Of a DNA stretch of 64,000 nt, positions 23,156 to 49,050 are shown piece after piece. Under the pieces are notes generated by a model. That model was given only the letters and a program-made list of their open reading frames with translations. It was not told the DNA's origin and searched no databases. This DNA comes from a virus (lineage: Duplodnaviria; Caudoviricetes). The stretch spans positions 160,001 through 224,000 of IMG/VR virus record IMGVR_UViG_3300022555_000003; one strand, written 5' to 3'. Every line of letters starts with the position of its first letter. The first letter of the stretch is position 1. Made by a program: the position numbers and the translations under genes.

Positions 23156-23188
23156 GAAATTGGAGCGTATAAATTACGCTCCATTTTC
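23156..23188. terminator. bidirectional intrinsic terminator between convergent genes
   Basis: GAAAT-TGGAGCGTA-TAAAT-TACGCTCCA-TTTTC. Confidence 0.75.
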
Positions 23189-23953: not shown

Positions 23954-25398
23954 TGTTTTAGGTTCCTAATCATATTTTTAGCCAATACTTCTGCATCATG
24001 TCTTGTAAAATTTGGATTCTTAAGAGTAGCATCAAGTATTTTATTTTTGATATCGCCAACTAGTCTACCTTTTGCACCCAACGCCATAATTTCATTACCA
24101 TCCAATATACTCTTAGTATTAAGGATTTGATTGATATCCATTTGTTGGATACGCTTTCTGATCATATTGATTTGTTCTGGCAATCCGTGACCTACAGCAT
24201 GAGAATTATTGTCTGCATTGATTACGTCCAACACATCCTCAAGATTGTGACTAACTCTGTAGATAAACTTTCTAAGAGTTGAATCCTTCATAAGTGTTCC
24301 ATCTGGACCAGCGCTCTTCAATCCCATATGATTACTGATAATAATACAAACTTTATCAATAACTTCAGTTGGGTATTTTAGTCTACGCAAAGCAACTTTT
24401 GCAATGTCTGCTCCAATACTTTCGTGACCAATAAATTGCACTTTTCCATCTTTTTCTGTTCTCGTTGAAGATTTTCCACAATCGTGAAATAGTGCCGCTA
24501 GTCTCTTAATAAGGTCTGGTGAACTATTGTCTAGAACTGTTAGAGTGTGTCCAAGTGCATCTTGGTTATGAAACTTGTTTTGCTTTAGCTTATCTAGTGC
24601 TTTAAGCTCAGGCAAAATTACGTCCATAATGCCAGTAATTCTAAATAGTTCAAATGCTTTACCAGGCTTATTAAGAACAAGAATTTTACTGATCTCATCA
24701 TTGATTCGTTCTGCACTGATACTCTTAAGAGAGGGAGCAGCTTTTTTAATTGATTTAATGACATTAAGTGGAAGAGTAAATCCATACTTAATTGCAAATC
24801 GAACAGCACGAAGAATACGAAGAGGATCTTCTGAAAATATTAGTTCTGGCTTTCCGGTTGTATTGAGTACTCCATTTTTAAGATCTTTCAAACCACGTCC
24901 ACTCAAATCAAGTATCTCACCAGTTTGTAGATTTTGAATTAGAGAATTTATTGTGAAATCTCTGCGTAGTACATCATCCTTCAACGTTCCAGCCACTACA
25001 GCTGGCTTACGACTTCCTGGAGTATATTTTTCTGTCCTGGGTGCTACAAACTCGACATCCATTGGTCCCGAATTTGTTTTGATTGCAAGTTTTGCAGTAA
25101 AATATGTTGGGAACAATACAGGATTGCTATCTTGCTTAAAAATACCAAGCTTTTTAGCAATAAATGTGGCTGCATCAAGCCCAGCAGTAGGTCCACCATC
25201 AACAACAATATCGATATCTTTTGAATTTTTACCCAAAAGTGTATCACGCACAAATCCTCCAGCAATAAATAGCCTTCCGTCGAATTCAGATCCTTCGATT
25301 GCATTTTTCAGAAGTTCAATTGTTTCGTCGGTTTGTGATGATTCCATTATCATACTACTATTATACACTCTTTGGTTGATAATTTCAAATATTTTCAT
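23950..25398 (-). CDS. cca: CCA-adding tRNA nucleotidyltransferase with HD domain
   Basis: AGGFVRD, KDIDI, DDVLRRDFTINS, EDPLRILRAVRF, ERINDE, HDCGK; starts MKIFEI. Confidence 0.92.
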   Translation of the reverse strand: MKIFEIINQRVYNSSMIMESSQTDETIELLKNAIEGSEFDGRLFIAGGFVRDTLLGKNSKDIDIVVDGGPTAGLDAATFIAKKLGIFKQDSNPVLFPTYFTAKLAIKTNSGPMDVEFVAPRTEKYTPGSRKPAVVAGTLKDDVLRRDFTINSLIQNLQTGEILDLSGRGLKDLKNGVLNTTGKPELIFSEDPLRILRAVRFAIKYGFTLPLNVIKSIKKAAPSLKSISAERINDEISKILVLNKPGKAFELFRITGIMDVILPELKALDKLKQNKFHNQDALGHTLTVLDNSSPDLIKRLAALFHDCGKSSTRTEKDGKVQFIGHESIGADIAKVALRRLKYPTEVIDKVCIIISNHMGLKSAGPDGTLMKDSTLRKFIYRVSHNLEDVLDVINADNNSHAVGHGLPEQINMIRKRIQQMDINQILNTKSILDGNEIMALGAKGRLVGDIKNKILDATLKNPNFTRHDAEVLAKNMIRNLKQ

Positions 25399-25407
25399 TA
25401 CTTTCCT

Positions 25408-25884
25408 TTATCCAATATACTTTTCTAATTTATTGCCGTCTGCTTGTTTTTTATATCCTAATCGTTCATAAAATGATTTGGCTGTTGAAGTTAACACTAT
25501 TTTCTTAACTCCTTTTATTTTAGCTTCTTTTTCTAACGCATTTATAACTTGTGATCCAGCGCCCCTTTCAATGGATCCAACATTCATAATTTCCGCTTCA
25601 GTTGATTTTCGTGGGATCCACATTGATCCAGCTGCTACAATCTTATTATTTAAAATAACAAATGCTGTCCTAATGTTAGCTCGCTGTGATAAAGGTGCAT
25701 TGATTTGTATTTCTAATACTGTACTAATATGACATAATGCAGCATATTCATGATTTTCTTCGCCGTTTTCTTCCAATTCAGCTATTCGTTCATCAACTTG
25801 TTTAATTGATTGACGTGCAATATTATCAGACAGATTAATGCCAGTTTGTACATTTTCTTTTAATATCATTTCTGTTATTTTCAT
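25408..25884 (-). CDS. GNAT acetyltransferase with Glu-leader
   Basis: ERGAGSQVINALEKEA (motif A), AKSFYERLGY; starts MKITEMILKE. Confidence 0.8.
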   Translation of the reverse strand: MKITEMILKENVQTGINLSDNIARQSIKQVDERIAELEENGEENHEYAALCHISTVLEIQINAPLSQRANIRTAFVILNNKIVAAGSMWIPRKSTEAEIMNVGSIERGAGSQVINALEKEAKIKGVKKIVLTSTAKSFYERLGYKKQADGNKLEKYIG

Positions 25885-32228: not shown

Positions 32229-32723
32229 TTATTTATCCAATTCTCCATATCCTTGTGCTTGCCCTTCATCACTGGTTGTAAAAATACTATTACTTCTTCT
32301 AGCTTCAATTCCAAGTAGTTTCAAATTCTTATCATAAGCAATTGTATTATCAATATCACTATCGACGGTCCGTCTTTTTTCAATACTAGCTGATTCAAAA
32401 ATTACTCCAGATGGTCTTGTGCCACGAAATAATACTTTTTTTATTGTATCAAAAATATTAAGATAGTTACTAGCTTCTTTTTGTATTTTCTTTATTACAT
32501 CTACTTCTTTCTTTATAACTTGTTTAACCTGAGATAATTCTTTCAAATAATGTCCTTTTGCAGTCTGATGAATGTTTTTAACGGCATCGTTTGTTGTTTG
32601 TTTAATGTTATAATCAGAATCTTTAATCCAATAATTCAGTTTTTCCAGATGTGATTCGTCTTCCCACTTGTTTATTAAAACAGTACGATGGCTCTTTGCT
32701 TCCATTAAGTCAATTATTTTCAT
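32229..32723 (-). pseudogene. ART-array copy 1, 3'-truncated (lacks catalytic-Glu segment)
   Basis: LFRG and RSNSIFTTS present; ends GYGELDK* inside the next gene's late promoter. Confidence 0.75.
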
Positions 32724-33568
32724 TTAGTGTATCCTAATTTTCTTCTAATTGTTTGAAATTCAAAAAAGTACTTTTCTAATATAGCAAAATATGCTCCATG
32801 TATTAGTACTTCATTTTCTGATTTTAAGGCGGCTGGAAAATTCTTATTAGTAACTCTAAATTTTTTCTGAAAGCTATCTAAATCTGGTTCTCTATTTAAT
32901 AATTCTCTAGTATATTTAAGTACTGGAGATTCGGGGAATTTCAATGATATCCATTTTAAATTATCTACTATAGTACTTTTTTCTGTAAAACCTAATATTT
33001 CATATAGTTTAAATTTATAGTCAATCAAAGTAGATTTTAATTTCCAAACAAGATTATTATATTCTTTATCAGCCCTTTCAATCTCGCTGTCAATTACATT
33101 TGTTATTTCTTTTGGATAATCTTTTACATAACTACCCATATGATCTAAAATCAAATCATTGTGTATTCTGCTCCAACTAAATACTGCTGTATTTTTTGGA
33201 ATGATGACATATGATATTTGTCCGTAGTCTGAAGAAGAATCCAAACTAGATGTGGTAAAAATACTATTACTTCTAAGAGCTTTAATACCAAGTAACGTCA
33301 TCAAATTATCATATCTTAGAGTATCCGATTTGCTACTATCCATTGGACGTCTATTTTCAATACTTTCACCTTCAAAAATTACTCCAGTTTTTTTAGTTCC
33401 TCTATATAATACTCTATGTGTTGCATCAAATACTTTAAGATATTTACTGCATTCTTTCTGTATTTTAATAGTAATGTCAGTATTTATTTGTGCGCCGTCT
33501 TCCCACTTGTTTATTAAAATTACACGGGTTGAATGTTTCTTTGCTTCCATTAAGTCAGTTATTTTCAT
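32720..33568 (-). CDS. putative R-S-E ADP-ribosyltransferase, copy 2 (ExE)
   Basis: LYRG, RSNSIFTTSS, SENEVLIHG; leader MKITDLMEA. Confidence 0.75.
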   Translation of the reverse strand: MKITDLMEAKKHSTRVILINKWEDGAQINTDITIKIQKECSKYLKVFDATHRVLYRGTKKTGVIFEGESIENRRPMDSSKSDTLRYDNLMTLLGIKALRSNSIFTTSSLDSSSDYGQISYVIIPKNTAVFSWSRIHNDLILDHMGSYVKDYPKEITNVIDSEIERADKEYNNLVWKLKSTLIDYKFKLYEILGFTEKSTIVDNLKWISLKFPESPVLKYTRELLNREPDLDSFQKKFRVTNKNFPAALKSENEVLIHGAYFAILEKYFFEFQTIRRKLGYTK

Positions 33569-34554
33569 TTAAGTAATCCTAACTTAGTTCTGAGTGGTTG
33601 AAGGTGTACGAAGAAGTCCTCTTCAGCTACAGCAAAATATTCTCCGTGTATTAATACTTCATGCTTGGATCTGATTGCTGCTGAAAAATAAGAATCATAA
33701 ACTCCATACTTTTTTTGAAATTCTTTAAGATTATATGTTGGATTTATTAGTTCTTCTGAATATTTAAGTATTGGAGATTTTGGTTTATTTTTAGAGATCC
33801 AACTAACTAACCCTTTGGCATCTTCGATAGTTTCTTGATACAACAAATCTCTCAATGAATTATTATATTCTGTCATTTCTTCAATTTTATTTTCGTCTTT
33901 TAGTTTCGATATAATAGCGTCACTTTTATCAAGCTCTTTTTTAATCACATCTTTTAATTTACTAGAATACCTAGGGCCTAATAATGCTCTTCTATGTGTA
34001 GAATCTAACACCAAATCAGAATATATAAAGCTCCAACTAAACACTGCTGTATTCTTAGGTATAATTACATATACTTTGCTTCCATAATCACTTGCCTGAT
34101 TTGAACTTCCTGTTGTAAATGTACTATTACAACGTAAGGCTTCAATACCAAGTAACTTCAATTTTTCATCATATTCTTTTGACAAAAGATTACTACTGTC
34201 CTTAGGATGACGATTTATTGGACTCGTTGCTTCAAATATAGATCCTCCGTTAGTAGTACCTCTGAATAAAAAATTGTTGATTTGATCATATACTTTAATG
34301 TAATTACTACATTCTTTTTGTATTCTCTTAGCAATAGCAGTCTCTGAATTAATAATTGGTTTTATTTTGGATAACTCTTTCTCACAATCTTTTAGTAGTT
34401 TTTTAAACTTTGTCTTTTCTTTTGGATCTTTTTCTTGTTTAATAAGAGATGTGATATCGACGATATCTTTATTTACATCTAATCCATCTACCCATTTAGT
34501 CAGTAAAGTTTTTCGTTTACTAACAGATTCTAATAGTAAGTCATTTATTTTCAT
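33565..34554 (-). CDS. putative R-S-E ADP-ribosyltransferase, copy 3
   Basis: LFRG, RCNSTFTTGS, SKHEVLIHG; leader MKINDLLLES. Confidence 0.75.
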   Translation of the reverse strand: MKINDLLLESVSKRKTLLTKWVDGLDVNKDIVDITSLIKQEKDPKEKTKFKKLLKDCEKELSKIKPIINSETAIAKRIQKECSNYIKVYDQINNFLFRGTTNGGSIFEATSPINRHPKDSSNLLSKEYDEKLKLLGIEALRCNSTFTTGSSNQASDYGSKVYVIIPKNTAVFSWSFIYSDLVLDSTHRRALLGPRYSSKLKDVIKKELDKSDAIISKLKDENKIEEMTEYNNSLRDLLYQETIEDAKGLVSWISKNKPKSPILKYSEELINPTYNLKEFQKKYGVYDSYFSAAIRSKHEVLIHGEYFAVAEEDFFVHLQPLRTKLGLLK

Positions 34555-35534
34555 AATAATTTTTTAACCATTGGCCAAAATAGATGATTAATGGCAATAT
34601 ATTTTCCGTGTATTAATACTTCGTTACGAGACTGTAATGCCGCTGGCATATCACTATTAGTGATCTGATATTTCTTTTGAAATTTATCTAAATTAATTGT
34701 AATTGTATATTCAATGAGATCATGAAGTATTGTCGAGTTTGGAAAGTTTTTCTCTATAAAATCTAAAGTGTAAAATCGTGTATCAACTTGTTTAAACTTA
34801 ATAATATCTTTTAAAATTAGAATATATCTATACATGACTCTGTGTTTGTCGGGGAGATAGTAATCATCGTCATTTATCAGGTGTTGATATTTTGATAATT
34901 CTAGTCTAGATTTGTTAATTAACTCAATTGGTAAATCATACAAATCATCAAACGAATTACTTGTTAGTACTATATCGTCGGACGTCAATGAGCATGAAAA
35001 GTCTGCTGAATCTTCAGGAATAATTATATATGTATTCCCATATATTTGTACAGCCTGTTTCGAACTACTAGTAAAAATACTATTCAATCGAAGCGCTTTA
35101 ATACCTAATTGTGTTGCACATCCATCAAACAACTTACTCATTATAGCACTACTATCAAGTGGTCTTCTTTCTGACAGAGATTCTGATTCAAATGCAGTTA
35201 AGTTTCCATTGATGCCACGATATAACCATCTTTGTTCTTGTTTAAAAATATTTACATACTTATTGCAACTAGATTTAACTATCTGTTGAACATTATTTAT
35301 AACATCCCTATAGTTAGTCATGTCATTAATTATTTTTTCTTCCTCATCAATGACATTCTCATAATATCCAATACTCTCTGTATCAATGGGTTCACTAGAC
35401 TTAATTAAATCTATTTTATTTCTGAGGCGGTCAATACGCTCTATACAAGATGTATAAACAATAATATCAAAATTACCAGTCAATGAGACTTTCTTAGGAG
35501 CTCCATCTTCATTGATAATCTCTGAGAAACGCAT
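34551..35534 (-). CDS. putative R-S-E ADP-ribosyltransferase, copy 4
   Basis: LYRG, RLNSIFTSSS, SRNEVLIHG; leader MRFSEIINE. Confidence 0.75.
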   Translation of the reverse strand: MRFSEIINEDGAPKKVSLTGNFDIIVYTSCIERIDRLRNKIDLIKSSEPIDTESIGYYENVIDEEEKIINDMTNYRDVINNVQQIVKSSCNKYVNIFKQEQRWLYRGINGNLTAFESESLSERRPLDSSAIMSKLFDGCATQLGIKALRLNSIFTSSSKQAVQIYGNTYIIIPEDSADFSCSLTSDDIVLTSNSFDDLYDLPIELINKSRLELSKYQHLINDDDYYLPDKHRVMYRYILILKDIIKFKQVDTRFYTLDFIEKNFPNSTILHDLIEYTITINLDKFQKKYQITNSDMPAALQSRNEVLIHGKYIAINHLFWPMVKKLL

Positions 35535-35537
35535 TAG

Positions 35538-35984
35538 TTAGGCCCTTGCTTTCTTAGTCATTGACCGCATTTTCCACGCCCATTTTTCGTGAGCAGCAAT
35601 ACGATCCTGTAAAAAGTTTTGTAGACCTAAATGATCACCAGCTTGAGCATAAGTTTCTTCTAATAGCTTAATCACAACATGATTGTTTTCTAATAGCTCT
35701 TCAATCATTAATTCAGCTCTAGGAACTAGTAATTGTTCACTAATTTCAGTTAGTTCAGCAAAACGTGCTAAACTTCCTGGAGCATATATGTCAAGTGCTC
35801 TGATATGTTCAGCAATATCATCACATGATTCAAACACATCCTGATATAATTCACCTAGGAATGCATGATAAGAATGAAAATGGGGACCTTCTAGGTTCCA
35901 ATGGAAGTATTGAGCTTTTAGTTGGAATACATAAGATGTAGCTAATAAACGTTTGATCTTTTCTTCGAGATGTAGGATAGTCAT
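35538..35984 (-). CDS. dps: Dps-family mini-ferritin
   Basis: KAQYFHWNLEGPHFHSYH...DDIAEHIRAL...HEKWAW; GATAAATA 5 nt upstream. Confidence 0.92.
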   Translation of the reverse strand: MTILHLEEKIKRLLATSYVFQLKAQYFHWNLEGPHFHSYHAFLGELYQDVFESCDDIAEHIRALDIYAPGSLARFAELTEISEQLLVPRAELMIEELLENNHVVIKLLEETYAQAGDHLGLQNFLQDRIAAHEKWAWKMRSMTKKARA

Positions 35985-36011
35985 ATAACTATTTATCTAC
36001 ATGTTAAAATA

Positions 36012-36786
36012 TCATTCACCAAATAATTTTATTTTAATATCTGGCCACACACTAATGTGAATACCATAATATTCGCCATGTATTAATATTTCATTGCCTG
36101 ATTTTAATGCACTAACGAAGTTTGTTGAATCAATTTGATATTTTGCTTGAAACTTATTAATATTTGCTGGAACGTCTTTGGCATCATCTAATATAATATC
36201 ATCGTGAGTTTTACTCCAACTAAAATCAGCGGAGTCTTTTGGTATAATTATATATCTTGTTCTAGTTGTATTCTGACCAAAATTTAAATAGGCAGAGATT
36301 TGGCTAGCATCTCCGCTAGTAAAAATACTATTTTTTCGTTGAGCTTTAACACCCAATTTATCTAACTGCCTGTCAAACAAAATAGACATATAATTATCAC
36401 TATCAACAGGAATTCTGTCAATGAGACTCCTGTCTTGATATAATGCTCCACGATTTTTTCTGGCACTATATAAACATTCGTCGGTTTGTTTAAACACACT
36501 TAAATATTTTTTACACTCAGCGTTAATTTGCGGAATAAAATTGTCAAATTGTGCTAAGTAATCAGTAAATTGCTTCATCAACATTGTATATTTTACTGTT
36601 TCTTCATCAATATAATCCTGTGTTGATTTATATTCGGGGTTACTTTTATCAATCTTAATAAGATATATTTTTAATTCTTTTATATTGTGATCAATTTGAA
36701 GAATTTTTTTTATTTAAACTAGCTTGTATTTTGGGAACTAAAATTTGTTGATGTTTAGTTTCAGTTAAAAATTCATGTGATCTCAT
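36012..36786 (-). pseudogene. ART-array copy 5, frameshifted in an A8 run (or sequencing error)
   Basis: MRSHEFLTE start at 36786 goes out of frame at the T8 tract near 36704-36711; removing one base joins it to the 190-aa ORF with LYSAR, RKNSIFTSG, GNEILIHG. Confidence 0.7.
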
Positions 36787-37781
36787 TTTAATAATTTACC
36801 TTTGAGTGCTTCCCAAACTGAACTATGCAAGCCATAAAACTCACCATGTATTAGTATTTCATTTCTGGTACTAAGTGCTTTATCAAAATTAGTTGTATCA
36901 ATTTTAAATATGTCTATAAACTTCTTTATATCAACAGTTGGTTTATATTTAAGAAGTTTTTTGGATATTTTCAGTATTGGCGAATTAGGAAATATTTGTT
37001 TAATACGTCTTAAATTAAAATCCATGTTTGTATAATTTTGCTTGTCAAGATTATATAATATCTTGTGATATTCATTACTGGTCCAGTAATGATCATCATC
37101 GTCATTATTATCAATATCATCTGTTACTTTTCCCAACTCATCGCTTATTATTTTTTTAAATGGACTATCTACATAAGTTGGAATTATTGATGAGTTGCTT
37201 AGTATTAGATCGTCGTTGGATTCACTCCAGCTAAAATCAGCTGTACTTTTAGGTATAATAACATACTTTGTTTGGCCATAGCCACCAGCATGTGATGAGT
37301 CAGACGAAGTAAAAATACTATTTCCTCTGCGTGCTTTAACACCCATTTCTTGTAATATTTTGTCAAATGATATAGTAATTCCTTGGTCGCTGTCTCTTAC
37401 TTGTCTATTTTCAACACTACGTCCAACATATAATCCACCATGCATTCTACGGCCACTAAACAAACACTTATCTGTACGTTTGTAAGCGTCTAGATAAGTT
37501 TTACAGTCGTTACGAATTTGAGGAATGAATGGTGTAAATAATTTTAAATAGTCTTGGCATCTCTTTTTAATTCTTGCATACTTAGCTTCTGCAGCATCTA
37601 ATTCAATTTTAACTTGTTCAGCTGATGAAGCATTAAAATCTTTACTGGTGTTGTTTACAAGATTATTATATCTTTTCTTTAAGTAATAAACAGTATGTCG
37701 GTTTAATGTAACATTATTTATTAACTCAGTATTTATAGGTGTTACTAAAACTTCCATATCTATTACTTCATTGATTTTCAT
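36783..37781 (-). CDS. putative ADP-ribosyltransferase, copy 6 (FSGR variant)
   Basis: LFSGRR, RGNSIFTSSDS, TRNEILIHG; leader MKINEVIDME. Confidence 0.7.
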   Translation of the reverse strand: MKINEVIDMEVLVTPINTELINNVTLNRHTVYYLKKRYNNLVNNTSKDFNASSAEQVKIELDAAEAKYARIKKRCQDYLKLFTPFIPQIRNDCKTYLDAYKRTDKCLFSGRRMHGGLYVGRSVENRQVRDSDQGITISFDKILQEMGVKARRGNSIFTSSDSSHAGGYGQTKYVIIPKSTADFSWSESNDDLILSNSSIIPTYVDSPFKKIISDELGKVTDDIDNNDDDDHYWTSNEYHKILYNLDKQNYTNMDFNLRRIKQIFPNSPILKISKKLLKYKPTVDIKKFIDIFKIDTTNFDKALSTRNEILIHGEFYGLHSSVWEALKGKLLK

Positions 37782-38752
37782 TGGAATAACTTCCCTTTAA
37801 CTATGTCCCATATACTGTTATGTATCCCATAATATTTACCATTTATTAGTATTTCGTGATTTGTGTTTAGTACCGCTTCCATTGAGGTTGTATTAATCTT
37901 GAACTTTTCTTGAAACTTGTTGAGATCAATTTTTGGTTTATATTTAAGTAATTGATCTGCTATACTATTAACTGGAGAGTCAGGATATTTATTTTTGACA
38001 TAAGCTAAATCAGTTTTAATGTTATAAAAATTTTGTCTATATAACCATTCTAAGATTTGTAAGTATTTGTAATGTTGTCCAATATCAGAATCACGTTCAA
38101 TTCTTTCTTTTTCATCTTTAAGAATCTTTTCCATATTATCTGGCAATGGTCTGTAAGTTAATTTCAATGAATAACTACTTAGTACTAGATCATCTCTTGT
38201 TTCGCTCCAACTAAAGTTAATGTCATTGAATGGAATTATTATGTATCTATCAGCGCCATATTCTGCAGCATGACATTCACTTGACGTTGTAAAAATACTA
38301 TTTCCTCTACGTGCTTTAACACCAAGTTTTTTTAATAAACTATCAAATTTGGTTGTAACAGAGGCCATACTGTCTTTTGGTCTTCGTTTTTCTAAGCTTT
38401 CATCCTGATACAATGCTCCATGAAATCTACGTCCACTGTATAATACTTGGCCTGTTCTGTTAAATAATTCTAGATAATGACTACAGTTATTTTGAATTAT
38501 TGGTCCGAATTTTGAAAATTCTTTCATTGAATCAGCAAATCTTTTTTGAGTTTTTATAACATTATCTTTAGCTTTTTGCAACTCTTTTTTAAATTTAGCA
38601 GCTTGTTCTGGAGTTGTACTTTCCAACTTGTTATGTTCAATACTTTTTACTTTGTTAATGCCTACTTGCAATGTAGCTTGTAACTCAAGCTGAACACTAT
38701 GTATTAAAACTTTTTCATTTGCGCTTTCAACAATAAATTCGTGTGACCGCAT
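37778..38752 (-). CDS. putative ADP-ribosyltransferase, copy 7 (YSGR variant)
   Basis: LYSGRR, RGNSIFTTSS, TNHEILING; leader MRSHEFIVES. Confidence 0.7.
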   Translation of the reverse strand: MRSHEFIVESANEKVLIHSVQLELQATLQVGINKVKSIEHNKLESTTPEQAAKFKKELQKAKDNVIKTQKRFADSMKEFSKFGPIIQNNCSHYLELFNRTGQVLYSGRRFHGALYQDESLEKRRPKDSMASVTTKFDSLLKKLGVKARRGNSIFTTSSECHAAEYGADRYIIIPFNDINFSWSETRDDLVLSSYSLKLTYRPLPDNMEKILKDEKERIERDSDIGQHYKYLQILEWLYRQNFYNIKTDLAYVKNKYPDSPVNSIADQLLKYKPKIDLNKFQEKFKINTTSMEAVLNTNHEILINGKYYGIHNSIWDIVKGKLFQ

Positions 38753-39801
38753 TACATATCTCCTTTAAACAAATCAAATAAATCAATTTGAACCGCAATG
38801 TATTTTCCATGTATTAGTACTTCGTGCTTTTTAATTATAGCAGTTTGTAAGTTGGTGTCCATTGGTTTATATTTTTTCTTAAATTTATTCAAATTGACTC
38901 GGCTATATTCAATACTGTTTAATGTAAGTAGTAATGATTCAGGAAAATAATAATTTAGAAATTTTCGACCAGTGAAAGAAATAATTCTGTTTCCAGTAGT
39001 TCGAACATCTAGTAGATATTTATAATAACATTGTAGAATTGATAATTTTTCATTATATTCATTATCGTTTGATTTTGATATTAACTCTTTCTCTTCTTCA
39101 ATTTTAGTCTGTATTTCATCTAATTCATTGTCTAAGGCGGCAATCACTTCGGGTGAAAAAGACATTAGTCCATTAAATGAATCACTATGTAATATTAGAT
39201 CCTTTCCAGCCTCTGACCAGGAATAATCAGCTGTATCTTCAGGAAAAATAACATAAATGTTATTACCATATGATTTAGCTTGGCTTATACTACTTGATGT
39301 AAAAATACTGTTAGAACGCAGAGCTTTAATACCTAATTCTTGTAAACAACTATCATATAATATAGTAGAATCTATATTGCTATCTTTTGGAGGTCGATTA
39401 TTAGGACTGTCGGATTCAAATGCAGGAAATGAATTTGACTGACCACGATATAACATTCCACTATGCTTGAAGATTCCAATATATTCACTACATCTTTTTT
39501 TAATTATTGATATCAATAATTTTATGTTTTCTTTTAAATTTTCTTCTTTGTATTGATTTTTTTGAAGTTCAGCAATTCTATCAGTTAATACTTTATATTC
39601 TTTTTTAATTTTAAAAGATTCGTCAGATGTAATTTCTGGATTAAACCATATTTTTTCATGACATTCTGCTTGTTTCTTTTTTAAATCAATAATTACATAA
39701 GTAACCAATGGATCAACAGAAATGTCTACCAATGGATCAACAGAAATGTCTACCAATGGAGTTTTAACTGGTTTTATGTTCTCTACTTCAAATAGTCTCA
39801 T
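38752..39801 (-). CDS. putative R-S-E ADP-ribosyltransferase, copy 8
   Basis: Likely start MRLFEVE at 39801; LYRG, RSNSIFTSSS, KKHEVLIHG. Confidence 0.75.
   Translation of the reverse strand: MRLFEVENIKPVKTPLVDISVDPLVDISVDPLVTYVIIDLKKKQAECHEKIWFNPEITSDESFKIKKEYKVLTDRIAELQKNQYKEENLKENIKLLISIIKKRCSEYIGIFKHSGMLYRGQSNSFPAFESDSPNNRPPKDSNIDSTILYDSCLQELGIKALRSNSIFTSSSISQAKSYGNNIYVIFPEDTADYSWSEAGKDLILHSDSFNGLMSFSPEVIAALDNELDEIQTKIEEEKELISKSNDNEYNEKLSILQCYYKYLLDVRTTGNRIISFTGRKFLNYYFPESLLLTLNSIEYSRVNLNKFKKKYKPMDTNLQTAIIKKHEVLIHGKYIAVQIDLFDLFKGDM
39704..39760. repeat. 24-bp perfect tandem duplication in ART copy 8 N-terminus
   Basis: ACCAATGGATCAACAGAAATGTCT twice plus a partial copy; encodes PLVDISVDPLVDISVDPLV. 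Confidence 0.9.
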
Positions 39802-39802
39802 A

Positions 39803-40816
39803 TTAGTTTTTCTTTTCTGATATAGTAAGTAACGGTTCAAAATTTGAATTAGGTACAAATTCGTGTTTACGTATAACTGTCTTAGCTAAAAGCTCAAGTT
39901 CATCTTTAAATTTGTTCCATACTAGCACGAATGGAGCATTAACATCAGTTTTTAAATCTTTTAATACTGCTTGAAAGCCTGGATCTTTCTTTTTCAATTT
40001 TGGTGCATATTTTCGATAAGTTTCAATGAATAATCTGGCAAGTTCATTGATTGTTATTGGTTTCTTATTACGTAAATCATTTACTCTATCTAAGAAGTGT
40101 GTTGAAAAATGAACATCCATTCCAGCTAGCTCCCAAAATTGATTTAAATACTTCTCCAGAGAATGCAATTCATCATTAGTAATTTCTTCCGTTATTTTCT
40201 TTTTGGTACCTGACGGGGCAACTGCCATAGCGTCCTTTAAGGTTTTGAAATAACTCATCCCATTAACTTTTAACTTTGATATTTGAACAGCTCTTTTTGG
40301 ATCACCAGCTGCTGCTGAAATATAAAATGCTTTTTTATCATCTTCTGCTGCTGCTTTTCTCAATGCTGAAGCACTTCCAAGTCTGGGACTTTGTACGTGA
40401 GTAATTGATTTAAATGTATACTTACGTCCTAACTTGTCTGGAACTCCATTATAATCTTTAAGAAGTTTACCACTCCACCCATTCCAATCTTCAATATCAG
40501 TTACATATATTAAATCAGTTACTTCAGGATGATGTTGATTAATATAAAAAGCTAATGTAATAACTAATACTTCAGGAATGATGTGTCCTTTAAGGGTTGG
40601 ATCAAATGCTTCCATCCAAGCTTTTTTAACTTCGTAAGTAAGTGGATTATCTTTATTATGAGTAGTAGGACTAGTACCAACAAACCATAAATTATTGTCA
40701 GCTGAATGTTTAACAACTTCAAATAATTTAACATGTCCCATATGTACTCCGTTAAATCGACCAAAGCACATAGCGGCTGTTGTATTACTTGCTTCAAATA
40801 ATTGTTTGAGGTTCAT
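39803..40816 (-). CDS. HIGH-superfamily nucleotidyltransferase (cytidylyltransferase-like) fused to a second domain
   Basis: CFGRFNGVHMGH, NPLTYEVK, SASALR; C-terminal domain after KITEE with FSTHFLDRVND...KTVIRK. Confidence 0.75.
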   Translation of the reverse strand: MNLKQLFEASNTTAAMCFGRFNGVHMGHVKLFEVVKHSADNNLWFVGTSPTTHNKDNPLTYEVKKAWMEAFDPTLKGHIIPEVLVITLAFYINQHHPEVTDLIYVTDIEDWNGWSGKLLKDYNGVPDKLGRKYTFKSITHVQSPRLGSASALRKAAAEDDKKAFYISAAAGDPKRAVQISKLKVNGMSYFKTLKDAMAVAPSGTKKKITEEITNDELHSLEKYLNQFWELAGMDVHFSTHFLDRVNDLRNKKPITINELARLFIETYRKYAPKLKKKDPGFQAVLKDLKTDVNAPFVLVWNKFKDELELLAKTVIRKHEFVPNSNFEPLLTISEKKN

Positions 40817-41929
40817 TTAATGTTTTCCTAAGTTTGCTGCTGAGAATTTAAATCTATCAACTAACTTTACTGGGCCTGTATTGGTATGTACAATGAATCC
40901 TTCTTGACCAGTTTCATCACCTATTCCAGCATGTAAATCAGTAGTTGATTTATCAAGTTCATTTATTATCTTAAATTTTGCAACTGTAAGTAAACTAAAC
41001 ACAGTCATTACAGCACTAAATGCACTTTGATTTTTTTTAATATGTTCTAATATTCTAGGAGTTGCTGGTCCAGATTGAGTTTCTAACCATTTAATAAACT
41101 GTTGATCTAAATTAATTAATGATTTACTATATATAACATGTTGATTAACGAATGTTTTCAATAATGTCAAAAATGATTTAATCTTTGCTTCAGCTAAATC
41201 AGACTGATTAAATAATTGATCAATTGATGGACCAAACTTAGCAACTAATTGTGTAGCTTTTTTAAGTTCATCAGGCTCAGTAATAGTTACATTAGGAGCT
41301 AATTGGTCTGACATTATTAATAAGCCATTTACTTGATTTCTTACAACACTTTGTAAATCAGTATCAGTAACGTGATGTCCTGAAGTTGCTCCAGCATCTA
41401 ACTTACTATGCACTATAATTCCAACTTTGCTACGTCCTATTAACTTACCGAGTTCAGTATCAACGTTAACTGAATAAGTAACTGTATTTGGAGTGAAGAC
41501 AAACTTATCGCCTTGTTTTGGAGGTTGAGCTGTATACATTAAGTCTCCAAAAAGATATCCCGAAAAGCTTGTCGGAATACTCTTTTCAAAAATTGGCCAC
41601 AGTGAAGAATATAAAGCAAGTAAATGTTGATTGGTGCCACCTTTTCTAGCTGATAATATTTGTTCAAGTTCTTGTATACTATGTGGAGGAGTACTGATCA
41701 TATACTTATCACCCATAGCAAAACCAACTTTATCTCGTCCCCAGAATATAGCAGGCTTTCCGTCTGGCTTTAAACTTACTGTTTGTGGTTGTTTAATAGC
41801 TTGTCGTAATGCATTGATAGAGTCTGTTATCGCTGCTGATCCAATGAATGCAGCGTCTTCAACATGTTCAATTCGAGCTTTTTTAAGATTATATGTCTCT
41901 TCTTCTGTAATAAATTCTGATGATCGCAT
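40817..41929 (-). CDS. polynucleotide-ligase-like nucleotidyltransferase with Glu-leader
   Basis: Motif I KPDG, motif III-like GDLMY, motif IV EGFIV, motif V VKLV; starts MRSSEFITEE; GATAAATA at 41935-41942. Confidence 0.65.
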   Translation of the reverse strand: MRSSEFITEEETYNLKKARIEHVEDAAFIGSAAITDSINALRQAIKQPQTVSLKPDGKPAIFWGRDKVGFAMGDKYMISTPPHSIQELEQILSARKGGTNQHLLALYSSLWPIFEKSIPTSFSGYLFGDLMYTAQPPKQGDKFVFTPNTVTYSVNVDTELGKLIGRSKVGIIVHSKLDAGATSGHHVTDTDLQSVVRNQVNGLLIMSDQLAPNVTITEPDELKKATQLVAKFGPSIDQLFNQSDLAEAKIKSFLTLLKTFVNQHVIYSKSLINLDQQFIKWLETQSGPATPRILEHIKKNQSAFSAVMTVFSLLTVAKFKIINELDKSTTDLHAGIGDETGQEGFIVHTNTGPVKLVDRFKFSAANLGKH

Positions 41930-41955
41930 ATCAGTATTTATCTGAATTAATAATA

Positions 41956-42687
41956 TTATATTAATCGTTCAGCAAGCATATCTTCGTATATTTCTTTTCT
42001 AATAGCAATATATGTTCCGTGTACTAGTATTTCATGGCCAGATTTTAATGCAGCATCCAGATCAGTCTGGTCAAGTTTAAATACTTGTTGAAATGCTTTC
42101 AGATCCAAAATATTTAAATTTGAACTAGGTTGTAATACTATATCCCGATGTGTTTGAGACCAACTAAAATCATCAGAATTAAACGGAAAGATAACATATA
42201 CTCTACCATATGAGATAGCTTGGCTTACACTAGTTGTAGTAAAAATACTATTTGATCTCAACGCTTTAATGCCTAGTTTGGTTGCAAATTCATCATATTC
42301 TTCTTGAATTACCATGTAACTGTCTTTTGGTTCTCTATCAAAAGGTGAATAAGCTTCGAATGCTGCTGGCTTCTTACTTCTAATTCCACGATATAATACT
42401 CTATCATTCTTTTTAAATGCATCATAAAATTTACTACATTCTGATTTAATTCTATTAGATATTTGTTCGTAAGTTTTTATTATGTCAGTATTTGAATTAA
42501 TCTTTTCTAATTCATCATTGGCGCGTGCAAGCTTCTCTTGAAATAATTTTTTTCGTGATTCACTAGTAGTCTGATTTATAATTCTAACAAAAAATTGTAT
42601 GTTAAGTTCGATATTTTCTTTAGCAATTGGATCGTAATCTGCTAGTAAAGTAACTACATTTGATTTTGATATTTCGTTTAGTCTCAT
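41956..42687 (-). CDS. putative R-S-E ADP-ribosyltransferase, copy 9 (short form)
   Basis: LYRG, RSNSIFTTTS, SGHEILVHG; leader MRLNEIS. Confidence 0.75.
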   Translation of the reverse strand: MRLNEISKSNVVTLLADYDPIAKENIELNIQFFVRIINQTTSESRKKLFQEKLARANDELEKINSNTDIIKTYEQISNRIKSECSKFYDAFKKNDRVLYRGIRSKKPAAFEAYSPFDREPKDSYMVIQEEYDEFATKLGIKALRSNSIFTTTSVSQAISYGRVYVIFPFNSDDFSWSQTHRDIVLQPSSNLNILDLKAFQQVFKLDQTDLDAALKSGHEILVHGTYIAIRKEIYEDMLAERLI

Positions 42688-43415
42688 AATAGTTTCTCAA
42701 TGATCATATCTTCATATAAATCATGCCTAACTGCAATATACTTACCATGTATTAGTACTTCATGTTCAGAAAATAATGCCTCAGGTAAATTAGTCTGATC
42801 AAGTTTATATGTCTGTTGAAACTCTTGTACGTCTTTAAAATGTAATGGCTTCTCAGCGAATAATACAAGATCCTTTTTTGCATGAGACCAGCTAAAATCA
42901 GCTGAACTCTTAGGAAATACGACGTATAGATCGCCATAAATTCTAGCTTGATCTTCGTCTGACGATGTGAAAATACTATTTGATCTTTGTGCTATAATAC
43001 CAAGTTGCTCAGCAAATCTATCAAATTTTAATGTATTAACTAATCCGCTGTCCTTAGGTCGTCTGTCAGTTGGACTATTCGATTCGAATGCTGCTGGTTT
43101 GTTATGTCTGATGCCTCTATATAATACAGCATTACTTCGTTTGAATATACTATAAAATTTACTACATTCATTTTTAATCTTATCAGCTAATTCTTTTAAT
43201 ATATCATTTGACTTATTATATTCTTCAATCTTTCTTAATTGTTCTTTGGCGTGGTCTAACTCAACCTGAAATATTGCTTTACGTTCAGGAGTAACATAAT
43301 CTCTATTTAATTGATCAGTATAATACTGAATGTCTAAATTTATGCTGTTAAGTTTAGTAGCGTTATACTTATCAATTAATGTCGTTATGTTAGTAGATAT
43401 TTCATTCAATCTCAT
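42684..43415 (-). CDS. putative R-S-E ADP-ribosyltransferase, copy 10 (short form, ExE)
   Basis: LYRG, RSNSIFTSSD, SEHEVLIHG; leader MRLNEIS. Confidence 0.75.
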   Translation of the reverse strand: MRLNEISTNITTLIDKYNATKLNSINLDIQYYTDQLNRDYVTPERKAIFQVELDHAKEQLRKIEEYNKSNDILKELADKIKNECSKFYSIFKRSNAVLYRGIRHNKPAAFESNSPTDRRPKDSGLVNTLKFDRFAEQLGIIAQRSNSIFTSSDEDQARIYGDLYVVFPKSSADFSWSHAKKDLVLFAEKPLHFKDVQEFQQTYKLDQTNLPEALFSEHEVLIHGKYIAVRHDLYEDMIIEKLL

Positions 43416-44140
43416 AATAGTTTCTCTTTTATCATATCTTCATATACTTGATATTTAATAGCAATATATCGTCCATGTATTAATACTTCATGTTCTGATT
43501 TTAATGCAGCATCCAGATCTGTTTTCTTTAATTTGTATATCTCTTGGAATGATTTTAAGTCCTTAAATCCAGCTTTATGTTCAAGATATAATATAATTTC
43601 TCGTCGAGATTCTGACCAGCTAAAATCAGCTGTATCTTTTGGGTATATGACAAATAGAATGCCATAATATCTAGCGTGACATTCACTCGAAATAGTGAAA
43701 ATACTATTTGATCTAAGTGCTTCAATTCCGAGTTCTTGAGCAAACTTATCAAATAATATTGTATTATTAACATCACTGTCCTTAGGTTCTCTATTTACTG
43801 GGCTCATTGATTCAAATGCTGGCGGATGTTTATATTTGTATCCTCTAAACAATACTTTATCACATTTCTTAAAGGCATTATAAAAGTCTCTACATTCAAC
43901 TTTAATTTTAGTAGCTAATTTTTCCAATGAACCTTCCGGAAGTGATTCCAGATATGTTAATTCTTCTAGTGCATCTTCTAAATATTGTTGAGTTATTTTT
44001 TTATGCTCTTCTGTTTGTGGCTGCCGCATAAGTTTTTTATAATATGATATTTGCGAATTAATTGAATTTCTCCTAATAGGATCAAAATTCGCCGGTAGTA
44101 ACAGTATTTTGTTTGAATCAATCATTTCATATAGACGCAT
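43412..44140 (-). CDS. putative R-S-E ADP-ribosyltransferase, copy 11 (short form, ExE)
   Basis: LFRG, RSNSIFTISS, SEHEVLIHG; leader MRLYEMI; GATAAATA at 44146-44153. Confidence 0.75.
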   Translation of the reverse strand: MRLYEMIDSNKILLLPANFDPIRRNSINSQISYYKKLMRQPQTEEHKKITQQYLEDALEELTYLESLPEGSLEKLATKIKVECRDFYNAFKKCDKVLFRGYKYKHPPAFESMSPVNREPKDSDVNNTILFDKFAQELGIEALRSNSIFTISSECHARYYGILFVIYPKDTADFSWSESRREIILYLEHKAGFKDLKSFQEIYKLKKTDLDAALKSEHEVLIHGRYIAIKYQVYEDMIKEKLL

Positions 44141-44158
44141 AGTAATATTTATCTAAGT

Positions 44159-44890
44159 TTATAGTAATTTTTTACTTACCATTTCGTTGTATATGTCGTC
44201 TATAATAGCAATATATCTACCATGAATTAATATTTCGTGACCTGATAATAAAGCTTTATCTAAACTAAGTTGATCAAGCATAAATTTTTGTTGAAATAAT
44301 TGGATTGATGTGCAACTATCTAACATGTAAGGAACTAATACTATATCAGAATATTTCATTGACCACGAAAAATCAGCTGTATCTTTTGGAAAGATATTAT
44401 ATAAATAATATCCATACTCTTTAGCTTGAGATTTTTGAGTAGTAGCGAAGATACTGTTTGACCTGAGTGCTCTAATTCCAAGCTGTTCAGCAAATGTATC
44501 AAATTTTATTGTGGCTATTTCATTACTATCCTTTGGCCGACGGCCTTCTATACTAGTTGATACAAATACTGGTGGTCTCTCATTTCTAATTCCTCTAAAT
44601 AATACCTTGTTTACTTTCTTACAAGCATTATAAAATTTACCACATTCATTTTTAACTTTATCGGCTATTTTTTTAATCTTTTCATCTATTTCTTTGGCAT
44701 CAATATCATTTAGAATATCTAGATTGTAGTCTATAGATTGTTGTAATGACTTTCTATCTTCTGGATCAGTTGAATCATTTTGTAATTTAATCAGATTAGC
44801 AATATTCTTCTCAGCACTCTCTTTTTCATCTAATCCTATTTCAGATAGTAACGAAATTATATTTTCATCAGACATTTCATATAGACGCAT
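44159..44890 (-). CDS. putative R-S-E ADP-ribosyltransferase, copy 12 (short form)
   Basis: LFRG, RSNSIFATT, SGHEILIHG; leader MRLYEMSDE; TATAAATA at 44896-44903. Confidence 0.75.
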   Translation of the reverse strand: MRLYEMSDENIISLLSEIGLDEKESAEKNIANLIKLQNDSTDPEDRKSLQQSIDYNLDILNDIDAKEIDEKIKKIADKVKNECGKFYNACKKVNKVLFRGIRNERPPVFVSTSIEGRRPKDSNEIATIKFDTFAEQLGIRALRSNSIFATTQKSQAKEYGYYLYNIFPKDTADFSWSMKYSDIVLVPYMLDSCTSIQLFQQKFMLDQLSLDKALLSGHEILIHGRYIAIIDDIYNEMVSKKLL

Positions 44891-44898
44891 AGTAATAT

Positions 44899-45662
44899 TT
44901 ATATAAGCCTATTATAATACCTGATCTAACAGCAATATATGTGCCTTTAATCCAAATTTCGTGTCCAGATAATAATGCTTCTTTTAAATTAGTATCTGAA
45001 TGTAATCCTAAAACCTTAACCATATTATTAATATTAAAATTAGTACGTAGTTTAAACTCTCCAAATTGCTTTTTAATTGGATGATTCAGGTAATCGACTC
45101 ATGTATATTTCTAGAAGATTACGTTGTTCAAGCACATTATTAATAATAGACAAATACATTCTATTAATAGTTCCATGGTAATTATCTTCAACTATTGAAG
45201 GATTACTTGTTGGATACTTATCTATATAATCTTTTAAAGCTTTAGTGAATTGACTAGTATAAGAGTATGCTCCATATTTAATTACTGAATCAAAATCAAA
45301 AACTAAGTCATCATCATTTTCACACCAAGTATAATGAAAACCATTTTTTGGATATATTTGAAATACTTCACCAAAATACTTTGCTAATTTATGTGAAGTA
45401 GTTGCATATATAGAATTTAGACGCCTAGCTTCAACACCAATACTATCAAGACCCCAATCTATTACTCTATATATTTCTGCATTAGATGTCTTTGGAATAC
45501 GATCAGTACTACTACTATCTATATAATAGTTATTCTCATCTCTGGAATGACCACGTGTTCCATGTAGTAATGGATGTTCAGGAACTTCTTTCAATACCTT
45601 AAGATAATCAGAACACTCAGTAGCTATTTTTTCTTCTAATGTGATATTTCAAATAAGCGCAT
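44899..45662 (-). pseudogene. ART-array copy 13, at least two frameshifts
   Basis: MRLFEI start at 45662 is out of frame with LEEKIATECSDY; a second shift near 45076-45100 separates the core (LLHG, RLNSIYATTS) from LLSGHEIWIKG. Confidence 0.7.
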
Positions 45663-45667
45663 AGCAG

Positions 45668-45722
45668 TATTTATCACATCTTAAATGACTATAGGTGGTA
45701 GAGTTTAATTCTACCACCTATA
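45668..45722 (-). promoter_or_regulatory. terminator hairpin followed by the late promoter opening the ART array
   Basis: 13-bp stem TATAGGTGGTAGA/TCTACCACCTATA (45690-45722); GATAAATA at 45668-45675. Confidence 0.7.
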
Positions 45723-46770: not shown

Positions 46771-49050
46771 TTAATATTCAGTAACAAGTTCTTCAACTTG
46801 AATTTTACTGATATTGGATTGGACAGTGATCTTTAACTCTCCGTCCCAATCCAATAGTAACTTTGACTCATCAGCGACATTATCAAATAAGATCTTCTTG
46901 CTCAATGGAAGTTTGATTAACTTACTAACTTTGCGTGCTAATGGTCTCGCACCCATTTTATCATCAACACCAGTTTCAATAATGTAATCAATTAACTTTT
47001 CACTAGCAACAACCTGGAACTTCTTTGCTGATAGTAAATTATTGATATCGTTGATCAAGCTAACAACAATCTTACGATAACTCAAATTATCAAGCTTATT
47101 GAATGTGCAAATTGCACTTAGTCTATTTCTAAACTCTGGCTTGAAAAAGTCTTTAATTGCACTCTTATTGTTTTTCTTAGAACTTTGATCAAACCCAATT
47201 AAATTTTGTTCCATCTCTACAGATCCAAGATTGCTTGTTAAAACAATAATACTTTCTCTGCAATTTGCTTGCTTACCAACTCCATTGATATAACCTTCAT
47301 CCATCATTTGTAGTAGGATTAATGTAACATCAGGATGAGCCTTTTCAATCTCATCAAATAAAATAATGCTATTTGGATGAATTTCAATTTCATTAACAAG
47401 CTGGCCGCCACCCATTGTGCTATCATCAAAACCTACATACCCAGGAGGTGCTCCAATTAGTTTTGATACTGAATGCTTTTCTTGATATTCACTACAATCA
47501 ACTCTGATCAAGTGCATATTCAATTGTTTGCTCAACTCTTTACAAATCAATGTCTTGCCAACACCAGTTGGTCCAAGTAGCAAGAAGCTGCCAATTGGCT
47601 TATTAGGATCTTTCAACCCAGCCTTGCTGATAAGTAATTCATCAGTGATGATATCAACTGCTTCATCTTGACCATATACTACTTTCTTTACTTCAAAGCT
47701 TAGATCTTTGATTTTTTCAGTTTGAACTTCATCTAGCTGTTCAAGAGGAATCTTAGTTGCTTTACTAATTTCTAGCTGGATATCAGACTTATTAACTATC
47801 CAATCTGTTGCATCTAAAATTTTAAATTTTGCACAAGCACTATCAATTAGATCAATTGCCTTATCAGGTAACTTTAACTCTTTCTGATAGCGAATACTCA
47901 AATCAACTGCTTCATCAATGGCTTCGTCTGTAATAAATCCACCATGAAATGTTTCAAAGTAACTCTTAATTCCACGTAAGATTTGTTTTGCTTTGTTTGG
48001 AGTTGGCTCAGTTAACATTAACTTACGGAACCTTCGCATCAAAGCTTTATCTTTTTCAAATGACTTTTTGTACTCTTCCCAAGTTGTACTTGCAATAACT
48101 TTAATTCTGCCCTTTGAGATAGCAGGTTTGAGCATATTTGCTAAATCTGGACCACCAGAAGATCCTGATCCTGCACCAGACATTTGATGGGCTTCATCAA
48201 TGAATAAAATGCATTTTCCGGTTACCGAAAGAGCATCAATGATCTCTACAATCTTTTCTTCAAATTCGCCTCTGTACTTGGTACCAGCTAACAAGGTACC
48301 AATATCAAGATTCCAAACTGTCCAATCTTTTAAGTAATTTGGTACAAATCCTTTAGCAATATTTAATGCAAGACCTTCAATCAGACATGTTTTACCAATA
48401 CCACTATCACCAATCAATAGTACATTGGACTTATTTTTCTTTGCTAAAATTTGAGTGATATCAGTGAGCTCTTCTTCGCGACCAATAACAGGATCAATTT
48501 TACCATCGTTTGCAAGTGCGTTCAAATTGATACAATGCTTTTCTAGAAGTTCAAGAGCTTGATTGGTGTCCATCTTTCCTTTTTCAGCAGTTACTTTGTG
48601 TTCTTGATAATTATCTTCGTAAAATTTGATAAATTTTTCAGAATCTTCATTGGTAGAACCTAAATGCTTCTTCAGTATATATGCTGCATAGCTGGTTGTT
48701 TCTTGCGTAATGCTAACATAGATATCAATCAATCTAATATGATCACGACCTTGAAATACAACCAAATTAGCAGAACGTTCAATCACTCTTGATAACGTTG
48801 CTGTTTTAACTGGATTTGTTTGAGTCTGAGTATTCTGAGTAATAAGTTTTTGATCAGATACATACTTGTTGATTTCTGAATGCATCTGATTAGTATCAAC
48901 ACCATACTTAGATAATATATCTTTGAAATTCTTGTAGCATGTCAATGAATACAATAAATGTTCTAATGTCAAATATTGGTGATTCAAAGACTTGGCATAT
49001 TCAACAGTCTTCTGAAGTACTAAACTAAGTTCTGGATTTTCTCTTAACAA
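46771..49050 (-). CDS. clpA: ClpA-like Hsp100 AAA+ ATPase with IGF loop
   Basis: Clp N-domain (LEHLL), DPVIGREEE, GDSGIGKT, FIDEAH, GPTGVGKT, LFDEIEKAHP, NLIGF, FKPEFRNRL, GARPL. Confidence 0.92.
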   Translation of the reverse strand: MLRENPELSLVLQKTVEYAKSLNHQYLTLEHLLYSLTCYKNFKDILSKYGVDTNQMHSEINKYVSDQKLITQNTQTQTNPVKTATLSRVIERSANLVVFQGRDHIRLIDIYVSITQETTSYAAYILKKHLGSTNEDSEKFIKFYEDNYQEHKVTAEKGKMDTNQALELLEKHCINLNALANDGKIDPVIGREEELTDITQILAKKNKSNVLLIGDSGIGKTCLIEGLALNIAKGFVPNYLKDWTVWNLDIGTLLAGTKYRGEFEEKIVEIIDALSVTGKCILFIDEAHQMSGAGSGSSGGPDLANMLKPAISKGRIKVIASTTWEEYKKSFEKDKALMRRFRKLMLTEPTPNKAKQILRGIKSYFETFHGGFITDEAIDEAVDLSIRYQKELKLPDKAIDLIDSACAKFKILDATDWIVNKSDIQLEISKATKIPLEQLDEVQTEKIKDLSFEVKKVVYGQDEAVDIITDELLISKAGLKDPNKPIGSFLLLGPTGVGKTLICKELSKQLNMHLIRVDCSEYQEKHSVSKLIGAPPGYVGFDDSTMGGGQLVNEIEIHPNSIILFDEIEKAHPDVTLILLQMMDEGYINGVGKQANCRESIIVLTSNLGSVEMEQNLIGFDQSSKKNNKSAIKDFFKPEFRNRLSAICTFNKLDNLSYRKIVVSLINDINNLLSAKKFQVVASEKLIDYIIETGVDDKMGARPLARKVSKLIKLPLSKKILFDNVADESKLLLDWDGELKITVQSNISKIQVEELVTEY

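Follow-up and report, generated by a model that had tools for sequence, protein, structure and literature searches.

The window described here is a 64,000-nucleotide stretch (bases 160001-224000) of the 242,080-bp viral record IMGVR_UViG_3300022555_000003 (Caudoviricetes), whose ends are inverted terminal repeats. It carries 13 tandem paralogs of one protein family on the minus strand at 32229-45662, of which 10 are intact and 3 are decayed. A profile built from these copies identified four further paralogs outside the window, on the plus strand at positions 123703-127845 of the whole record (G000), giving a total of 17. With a probability of roughly one in two, the array is a duplicated set of injected ADP-ribosyltransferase (ART)-like enzymes in which two optional modules tune the targets. 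Tandem duplication and divergence of one gene of the phrog_11975 family would have produced the array, and its proteins would be packed in the capsid and injected in the manner of T4 Alt, acting on host molecules as infection begins. An N-terminal hairpin and an insert after strand 4 of the core would have been gained and lost by clean in-frame indels. These modules would tune which host molecule each paralog binds, resulting in a set of enzymes with different targets. The record is 74% complete according to the CheckV estimate, and its GC content is approximately 30%. Positions are those of the window unless they are prefixed with G000 or L001, where L001:3703-5181 corresponds to G000 123703-125181.

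All ten tested copies match phrog_11975, a family with unannotated function, at 3e-18 to 2e-32, and they share a conserved core of approximately 160 amino acids (aa). The ADP-ribosyltransferase fold is a split beta-sheet composed of strands 4-5-2 and 1-3-6 with flanking helices. AlphaFold2 (AF2) predicts six core strands in the order of this fold together with one extra strand, which is moderate evidence for the assignment. Strand 1 carries Y[R/H/S]G (for example, LYRG) within the predicted strand 98-102, and strand 2 carries NS[IT]F (for example, NSIF) at the predicted strand 148-151, where S147 is invariant. A conserved glutamate, E219 (xHE[IV]L), opens the predicted strand 220-223, which is strand 5. 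R118, R144, N146, S147, and F149 are invariant in 27 diverse sequences, and E219 is near-invariant. The named structure neighbours of the core in the ESM Atlas are DUF3841 (template-modelling score 0.55/0.50), the Tse2 ART, Arr, and ART-PolyVal, while by features DUF2441 (the BC2332 family) is the named cluster closest to it. The Pfam ART clan includes DUF2441, Arr-ms, ADPRTs_Tse2, and ART-PolyVal (PMC7955679). BC2332 has been classed in the SCOP ADP-ribosylation superfamily (PMC3000352) and was linked to diphtheria-type toxins by template matching (PMC3024214). Weak Foldseek matches include PARP1, Arr, Tpt1, and OspC3. Because several weak fold matches coincide with [R/H/S]-S-E residues on predicted strands 1, 2, and 5, the core is most likely an ART-like fold, a model-based assignment made with moderate confidence. 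Foldseek gave no significant match for the long copy 7 model. VIA-align on the short model matched mostly the N-terminal hairpin (residues 19-68) and barely probed the core, with 2aua at rank 32 on a second look. A search of PDB with a sequence profile of the 13 copies was set aside, having returned only spurious helical matches such as VPS4 MIT. A cysteine just before the core (E-C-S/K motif; residue 84 of copy 9) is kept in at least 90% of the 27 diverse family members.

The copies exist in two architectures, which differ at a site between the D..L motif after strand 4 and the F..K[YF] helix. Copies 2-4 and 6-8 have 84-98 aa at this insert site, and copies 5 and 9-12 have 8-9 aa. A preliminary description of this DNA had divided the copies into the same long and short forms, and the lengths were confirmed; its value of 13 aa for the short linker follows from the boundaries used there. 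That description also counted copy 13 as a long form, which it is, but in a decayed state, with a stop after the leader and a frame-shifted C-terminal half. Likewise, the (F/Y/K)P.S(P/T/L) motif said to end the insert is present in copies 2-4 and 6-8 but lies 13-18 residues before the insert end. Among the six long copies, coreN, the N-terminal part of the core, has a mean pairwise identity of 45% (z 23, as alignment versus shuffles), and coreC, the C-terminal part, one of 40% (z 12). The insert reaches 28% (z 4.5) and the N-terminal region only 26% (z 1.4), which agrees with the earlier remark that the N-terminal regions are nearly unalignable. The z of 4.5 indicates that the inserts of the window are still detectably homologous.

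The AF2 models are confident for both forms, with a mean predicted local distance difference test (pLDDT) score of 91.4 for the short copy 9 and 91.6 for the long copy 7. The insert of copy 7 is predicted as four helices (205-219, 224-238, 245-255, and 260-270), mostly with a pLDDT above 90. It is placed between strand 4 and the helices preceding the conserved Glu, in a loop approximately 25 residues upstream of this residue. The N-terminal region is predicted as a helical hairpin of approximately 50-80 aa followed by two further helices. The earlier view of a conserved scaffold with variable helical parts thus holds, as the core is the most conserved part and both modules are fast-diverging, dispensable, and predicted to be folded.

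The history of the insert within this phage was followed in a core-only tree. Copies 9-12 form one clade (support 98/94; 96*), which is consistent with one deletion followed by tandem duplication. Copy 5 nests within the clade of the long copies 6 and 7 (support 100/99 and 95/83). Forcing all five short copies together changed the fit by -42 log-likelihood units and was rejected by the approximately unbiased test (p 0.0007), this group having been named after the tree was seen. The similarity of the inserts follows the core tree, with z values of 8.1 for copies 2 and 3, 10.0 for copies 6 and 7, 5.2 for the distal copies d2 and d4, and 11.7 for the relatives P0010 and P0013. No long near-identical DNA tracts were found between the copies. 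Tree congruence, the absence of shared tracts, and the nested position of copy 5 therefore indicate that the insert was inherited vertically and was not swapped in this phage. The short copies are deletion derivatives in which the insert was cleanly lost at least two times independently, and the long copies of the window share one insert type that diverged together with the core. The insert had been called swappable, which these results do not support. Recent exchange of cassettes was rejected for the same reasons, namely the co-divergence of inserts with their cores and the lack of near-identical tracts.

The same site is variable throughout the family. In a sample of 28 viral-contig loci, retrieved with a nine-sequence alignment, arrays contain up to 10 copies in approximately 20 kb with mixed linker lengths; in one array they are 11, 23, 110, 13, 28, 13, 129, 13, 7, and 19 aa. 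Linker lengths are bimodal in 78 unique copies from this phage, the Agrobacterium jumbo phage Atu_ph07, and 18 distinct viral contigs, with 43 copies at 5-44 aa, none at 45-60 aa, and 35 at 61-173 aa. The core tree needs at least 10 changes between the long and short states, and at least 4 of them are forced by well-supported branches. Inserts of different clades, including those of the distal copies of this phage, have no similarity in shuffled local alignment or in hhalign (probability of 1.4% or less). At the sequence level, this lack of similarity fits independent gains as well as divergence beyond recognition. Throughout the family, the loop after strand 4 is a hot spot of indels, being either empty or occupied by helical pieces that are unrelated in sequence. 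Copies may likewise lack the N-terminal hairpin, and hairpin and insert are seen in all four combinations. The motif [FYK]P.S[PTL] is present in 20 of 150 long inserts, against approximately 4 expected from shuffles. An initial conclusion that the long form is the family norm was withdrawn; the profile had scored insert columns, and sampling by locus showed that the short form is at least as common. Some relatives (P0016 with 2645 aa, and P0015 and P0017-P0022 with 650-1086 aa) have 2 to 7 family domains per predicted protein. These may be either true polyproteins or read-through arrays, for example under another genetic code, and a Pfam search of the long fused relatives found no informative domains.

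Delivery with the virion is suggested by an N-terminal tag and by published proteomics. The tag, M-[RKI]-[LIFSV]-x-[ED]-[LIVFM], is present at 26 of 335 ATG starts of open reading frames (ORFs) in this genome, compared with 4 of 1289 internal Met residues. It also heads family members from many unrelated viral contigs, and M-[RK]-[LI]-x-E-[LIVF] is its narrower form. Approximately 10 of the approximately 26 tagged proteins do not belong to the family, including a CCA-adding enzyme (PolyA_pol + HD) and a DUF6267 protein. Examples of tagged ORFs in the window are 23950-25398, 23174-23953, 25408-25884, and 40817-41929. From its sequence distribution, the tag looks like a genome-wide sorting signal. 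Atu_ph07 holds a similar tandem array, in which gp53-gp63 are family members (coreN E 1e-5 to 1e-29), the gp numbers having been assigned to the record via gp70 (primase/helicase) and the listed molecular weights. Each of gp53-gp63 was detected in purified virions by electrospray ionization tandem mass spectrometry, with 3-31 unique peptides (PMC6102473 Table S5). Because of these virion-detected homologs and the tag, capsid packaging and injection alongside the DNA are probable for the proteins of the present phage as well. A ClpP-like serine protease gene at L001:10510-11151 is a candidate for a head-maturation protease.

A role of the modules in tuning the targets is suggested because they adjoin the presumed substrate side of the fold and differ widely in charge, with isoelectric points of 4.4-9.9 among the paralogs. 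R-S-E enzymes recognise their substrates via the ADP-ribosylating turn-turn (ARTT) loop (PMC7827354). The insert sits on that side of the fold, between predicted strands 4 and 5, the latter carrying the conserved Glu. Helical lobes beside ART cores have a substrate-binding role in SdeA, and in PARP1 they bar the access of NAD (PMC7827354). By analogy, both substrate binding and NAD blocking are conceivable for the helical modules of this family, and the position of the variable parts makes target recognition by them plausible. In seven paralog pairs, the nonsynonymous divergence (dN) ranges from 0.58 to 0.87 in the N-terminal region and insert and from 0.24 to 0.53 in the core; the modules change about twice as fast as the core at this level. 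In the same pairs, the proportion of synonymous differences (pS) is 0.48-1.05 and the synonymous divergence (dS) ranges from 0.8 to infinite, meaning that synonymous sites are saturated and dN/dS ratios are unreliable. Therefore, the type of selection cannot be told from these pairs. No orthologs at 70-95% identity were found.

Several observations weigh against the interpretation of the array as injected enzymes with tuned targets. Pfam and NCBIfam contain no model that matches the family, and with an E cut-off of 1 none of ten copies matched PF03496 (ADPrib_exo_Tox). The fold matches are modest in strength. On strand 1, copies 5-7 have Ser and two distal copies have His instead of Arg, and judging from these residues some copies may be inactive or have a different chemistry. 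The ARTT loop of R-S-E enzymes, X-X-aromatic-X-X-[E/Q]-X-E, precedes the catalytic Glu (PMC7827354). This canonical signature is missing in most copies. The third position is Leu or Ile and not aromatic. Its sixth position is E only in copies 2, 10, and 11 among the intact copies of the window and G, K, R, or N in the others; the distal copies d1 and d4 have E there, and d2 and d3 have A. The equivalent stretch is predicted by AF2 to be partly helical. Two conserved helices part the insert from the Glu, and therefore the insert is not the ARTT loop itself. The fast divergence of the modules fits relaxed constraint equally well as selection for new targets. Finally, PF03420 (Peptidase_S77, the T4 gp21 type) had no match in the 74%-complete record, although the control genomes were silent too. 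A gp21 homolog has been reported in Atu_ph07 (PMC6102473 Table S3).

The alternative that survives best, tentative as it is, assigns the modules to the virion, where they would bind the scaffold or the packaged DNA, set the head copy number, or hold the enzyme inactive until ejection. The homologs are virion-associated, the modules are all-helical and highly charged, and PARP catalytic domains with a helical domain are among the weak Foldseek matches. The PARP helical domain is autoinhibitory and blocks NAD binding in PARP1 (PMC7827354), and giant phages hold large head-protein paralog families of unknown function (PMC5694885). However, module-less copies in the same arrays are still tagged, so neither module is needed for a tag-based route, and Atu_ph07 copies without the N-terminal hairpin are still found in virions. 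It is unlikely, but conceivable, that the loop after strand 4 is a plug-in site where unrelated helical modules were acquired independently by lineage. The module and the optional hairpin would then give each paralog a host target of its own, either a protein or a nucleic acid, and the jumbo phage would inject a panel of differently aimed enzymes.

It is doubtful that the variable parts are only tolerated decoration under relaxed constraint, with a diversity that has no functional meaning. The insert was lost repeatedly while the ORF was kept, inserts of different clades are dissimilar, nominal dN/dS is below 1 in every region, and three array copies are decaying, all of which would fit such decoration. 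In contrast, random indels should fill the empty 45-60 aa class of linkers, and this class, the confident models of compact helical units, and the excess of the subfamily motif over shuffles speak against pure drift. Many unrelated phage arrays also retain long and short forms next to each other. Least probable is a non-enzymatic family, in which internal head proteins with a structural or DNA-associated role only resemble ADP-ribosyltransferases in their fold. The lack of a profile match to any curated ART family, the variable Arg position, and the many family members in Atu_ph07 virions would fit this reading. The conservation of R118, R144, N146, S147, F149, and E219 at the catalytic strand positions of the fold speaks against it, as do Zeta-toxin-like P-loop kinase fusions in this phage and Atu_ph07, which suggest a nucleotide-using effector context.

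T4 Alt is a known protein comparable with the injected ART-like enzymes proposed here, being a phage protein with an ART-type motif order and several paralogs per genome. The record of T4 Alt notes its presence in the capsid and its entry into the host together with the infecting DNA, whereas a likeness in delivery is only probable for the present family. The family tag has an L/I-x-E pattern like that of the T4 capsid-targeting sequences (PMC5694885). In contrast, T4 Alt matches ADPrib_exo_Tox at 5.8e-36, while the present family matches no ART model, and hhalign of the family profile against T4 Alt gave a probability of 0.2%. By sequence, the family is not Alt/C3-like. There are 17 copies in this phage compared with 3 in T4 (Alt and ModA/ModB), the strand-1 residue varies (R/H/S), the canonical ARTT signature is absent, and no optional helical insert has been described for Alt. 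The nearest structural or feature neighbours of the core, BC2332/DUF2441, DUF3841, Arr, Tse2, and ART-PolyVal, offer a second comparison. Unlike the present family, these small ART-clan families are mostly bacterial and not in tagged tandem arrays, and no such insert is reported for them.

The proteins gp53-gp63 of Atu_ph07 belong to the same family, have the same tandem layout, and have BFVD fold matches down to 1e-13. Their leader, MRWEQLTE, is analogous to the tag described above, and a 778-aa family member annotated as 'Zeta toxin domain-containing' shows that the kinase fusion recurs in both phages. Most Atu_ph07 copies are without the N-terminal hairpin, and those with a scorable C-terminal core have an insert of 72-80 aa with no detectable similarity to the window insert. 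The Atu_ph07 members are annotated only as hypothetical proteins. A tblastn search of phage records gave family matches only in Atu_ph07 and RsoM2USA, and megablast of the array DNA against phage records gave no match.

Polymorphic toxin systems resemble the array in that many diversified effector versions stand side by side. They have a constant delivery part, a toxin domain that is swapped by recombination, and adjacent immunity genes. In the array, the enzyme-like core is constant, the accessory helices vary, and the variation is vertical. The analogy with polymorphic effector systems drawn in the preliminary description is therefore not supported, given the constant core, the 4-bp gene overlaps, and the absence of both interleaved small or immunity-like genes and exchange tracts. 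The phiKZ-like giant phages also have large virion-protein families, such as the SPN3US paralog family B with 20 members, whose N-terminal propeptides are processed by a protease (PMC5694885). Their cleavage motif and propeptide lengths differ from the tag of the present family, and no sequence link was found in the tblastn search of phage records.

The family is large. Its profile matches 5,641 representative proteins at E<=0.001 and 847 at E<=1e-30 among 1.84 billion, and all of its BFVD neighbours are uncharacterised phage proteins. Jumbo phages encode several ARTs, according to Iyer et al. 2021 (PMC7824862). Neither the optional insert nor the tagged arrays were found described in the literature compared, which took in the text of PMC7824862 but not its supplements. 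If enzymatic, the family would be among the largest uncharacterised phage effector groups, without a Pfam or NCBIfam model. Its arrays reach up to 17 copies in jumbo phages, and published proteomics together with the family assignment put homologs inside virions. Natural paralogs of long and short form, with and without the hairpin, offer a ready-made comparison of accessory helices and substrate choice, and they bear on the modifications that the phage makes during the first seconds of infection. In terms of annotation, 'hypothetical proteins' in one block become a family with a defined core, a tag, and an indel hot spot.

All genes of the array are on the minus strand, and neighbouring paralogs often overlap by 4 bp. 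Copy 1 (32229-32723) is a truncated protein of 164 aa that runs from the leader through the N-terminal helices to the middle of the core; it is without strands 3-6 and the conserved Glu and matches only profile positions 1-161. Copy 2 (32720-33568) is a long form with a short N-terminal region of 22 aa. Its insert comprises aa 142-228 (nt 32885-33145), with FPESP at 32924-32938. The long copy 3 (33565-34554) has its N-terminal helices at nt 34333-34512 and an insert of 91 aa at nt 33733-34005 (KPKSP). The long copy 4 (34551-35534) has its N-terminal helices at nt 35289-35492 and an insert of 90 aa at nt 34695-34964 (FPNST). Copy 5 (36012-36584) is a short form with a linker of 8 aa (nt 36165-36188) and the strand-1 motif LYSA. 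Its leader and N-terminal region are degraded, with stop codons upstream where both are expected. Copy 6 (36783-37781) is a long form with the strand-1 motif LFSG, N-terminal helices at nt 37527-37751, and an insert of 89 aa at nt 36933-37199 (FPNSP). Copy 7 (37778-38752), the modelled long copy, has its insert at nt 37928-38179 (aa 192-275, YPDSP). The long copy 8 (38752-39801) has N-terminal helices of 83 aa (nt 39514-39762) and an insert of 98 aa at nt 38896-39189 (FPESL).

Copies 9-12 (41956-44890) are four short forms of 242-243 aa with linkers of 9 aa and a full N-terminal helical hairpin each, located at 41956-42687, 42684-43415, 43412-44140, and 44159-44890, respectively. Copy 13 (44919-45662) is the decayed long copy, in which the leader remnant MRLFEISH is followed by a stop at 45662. 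Its coreN ORF is at 45073-45594, and its C-terminal core is in a different frame at 44919-45128. Three genes inside the array do not belong to the family. The ferritin/Dps-like gene (35538-35984) matches PF00210 at 3.5e-18, the cytidylyltransferase-like gene is at 39803-40816, and the DUF6267 gene (40817-41929) has the same N-terminal tag as the family. Outside the window, the distal paralog at L001:3703-5181 (G000 123703-125181) has an N-terminal fusion to a Zeta-toxin/AAA_33-like P-loop kinase domain.

The start codon and approximately 15 upstream bases are conserved, with a reverse complement of roughly GATAAATA-TAC/TGC-T-ATGCG. Stretches of this type precede the DUF6267 gene, copies 11 and 12, and the copy 13 remnant (41915-41942, 44126-44153, 44876-44918, and 45648-45675), and they may be a shared promoter or ribosome-site element. 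Upstream of the distal paralogs, L001:1530-2695 holds three adjacent small genes that are pentapeptide-repeat-like, with repeats of the ADLxGANL type. Just downstream of the array region, window positions 46771-49050 encode a ClpB/Hsp104-like double AAA+ protein of 759 aa, which is unusual cargo for a phage.

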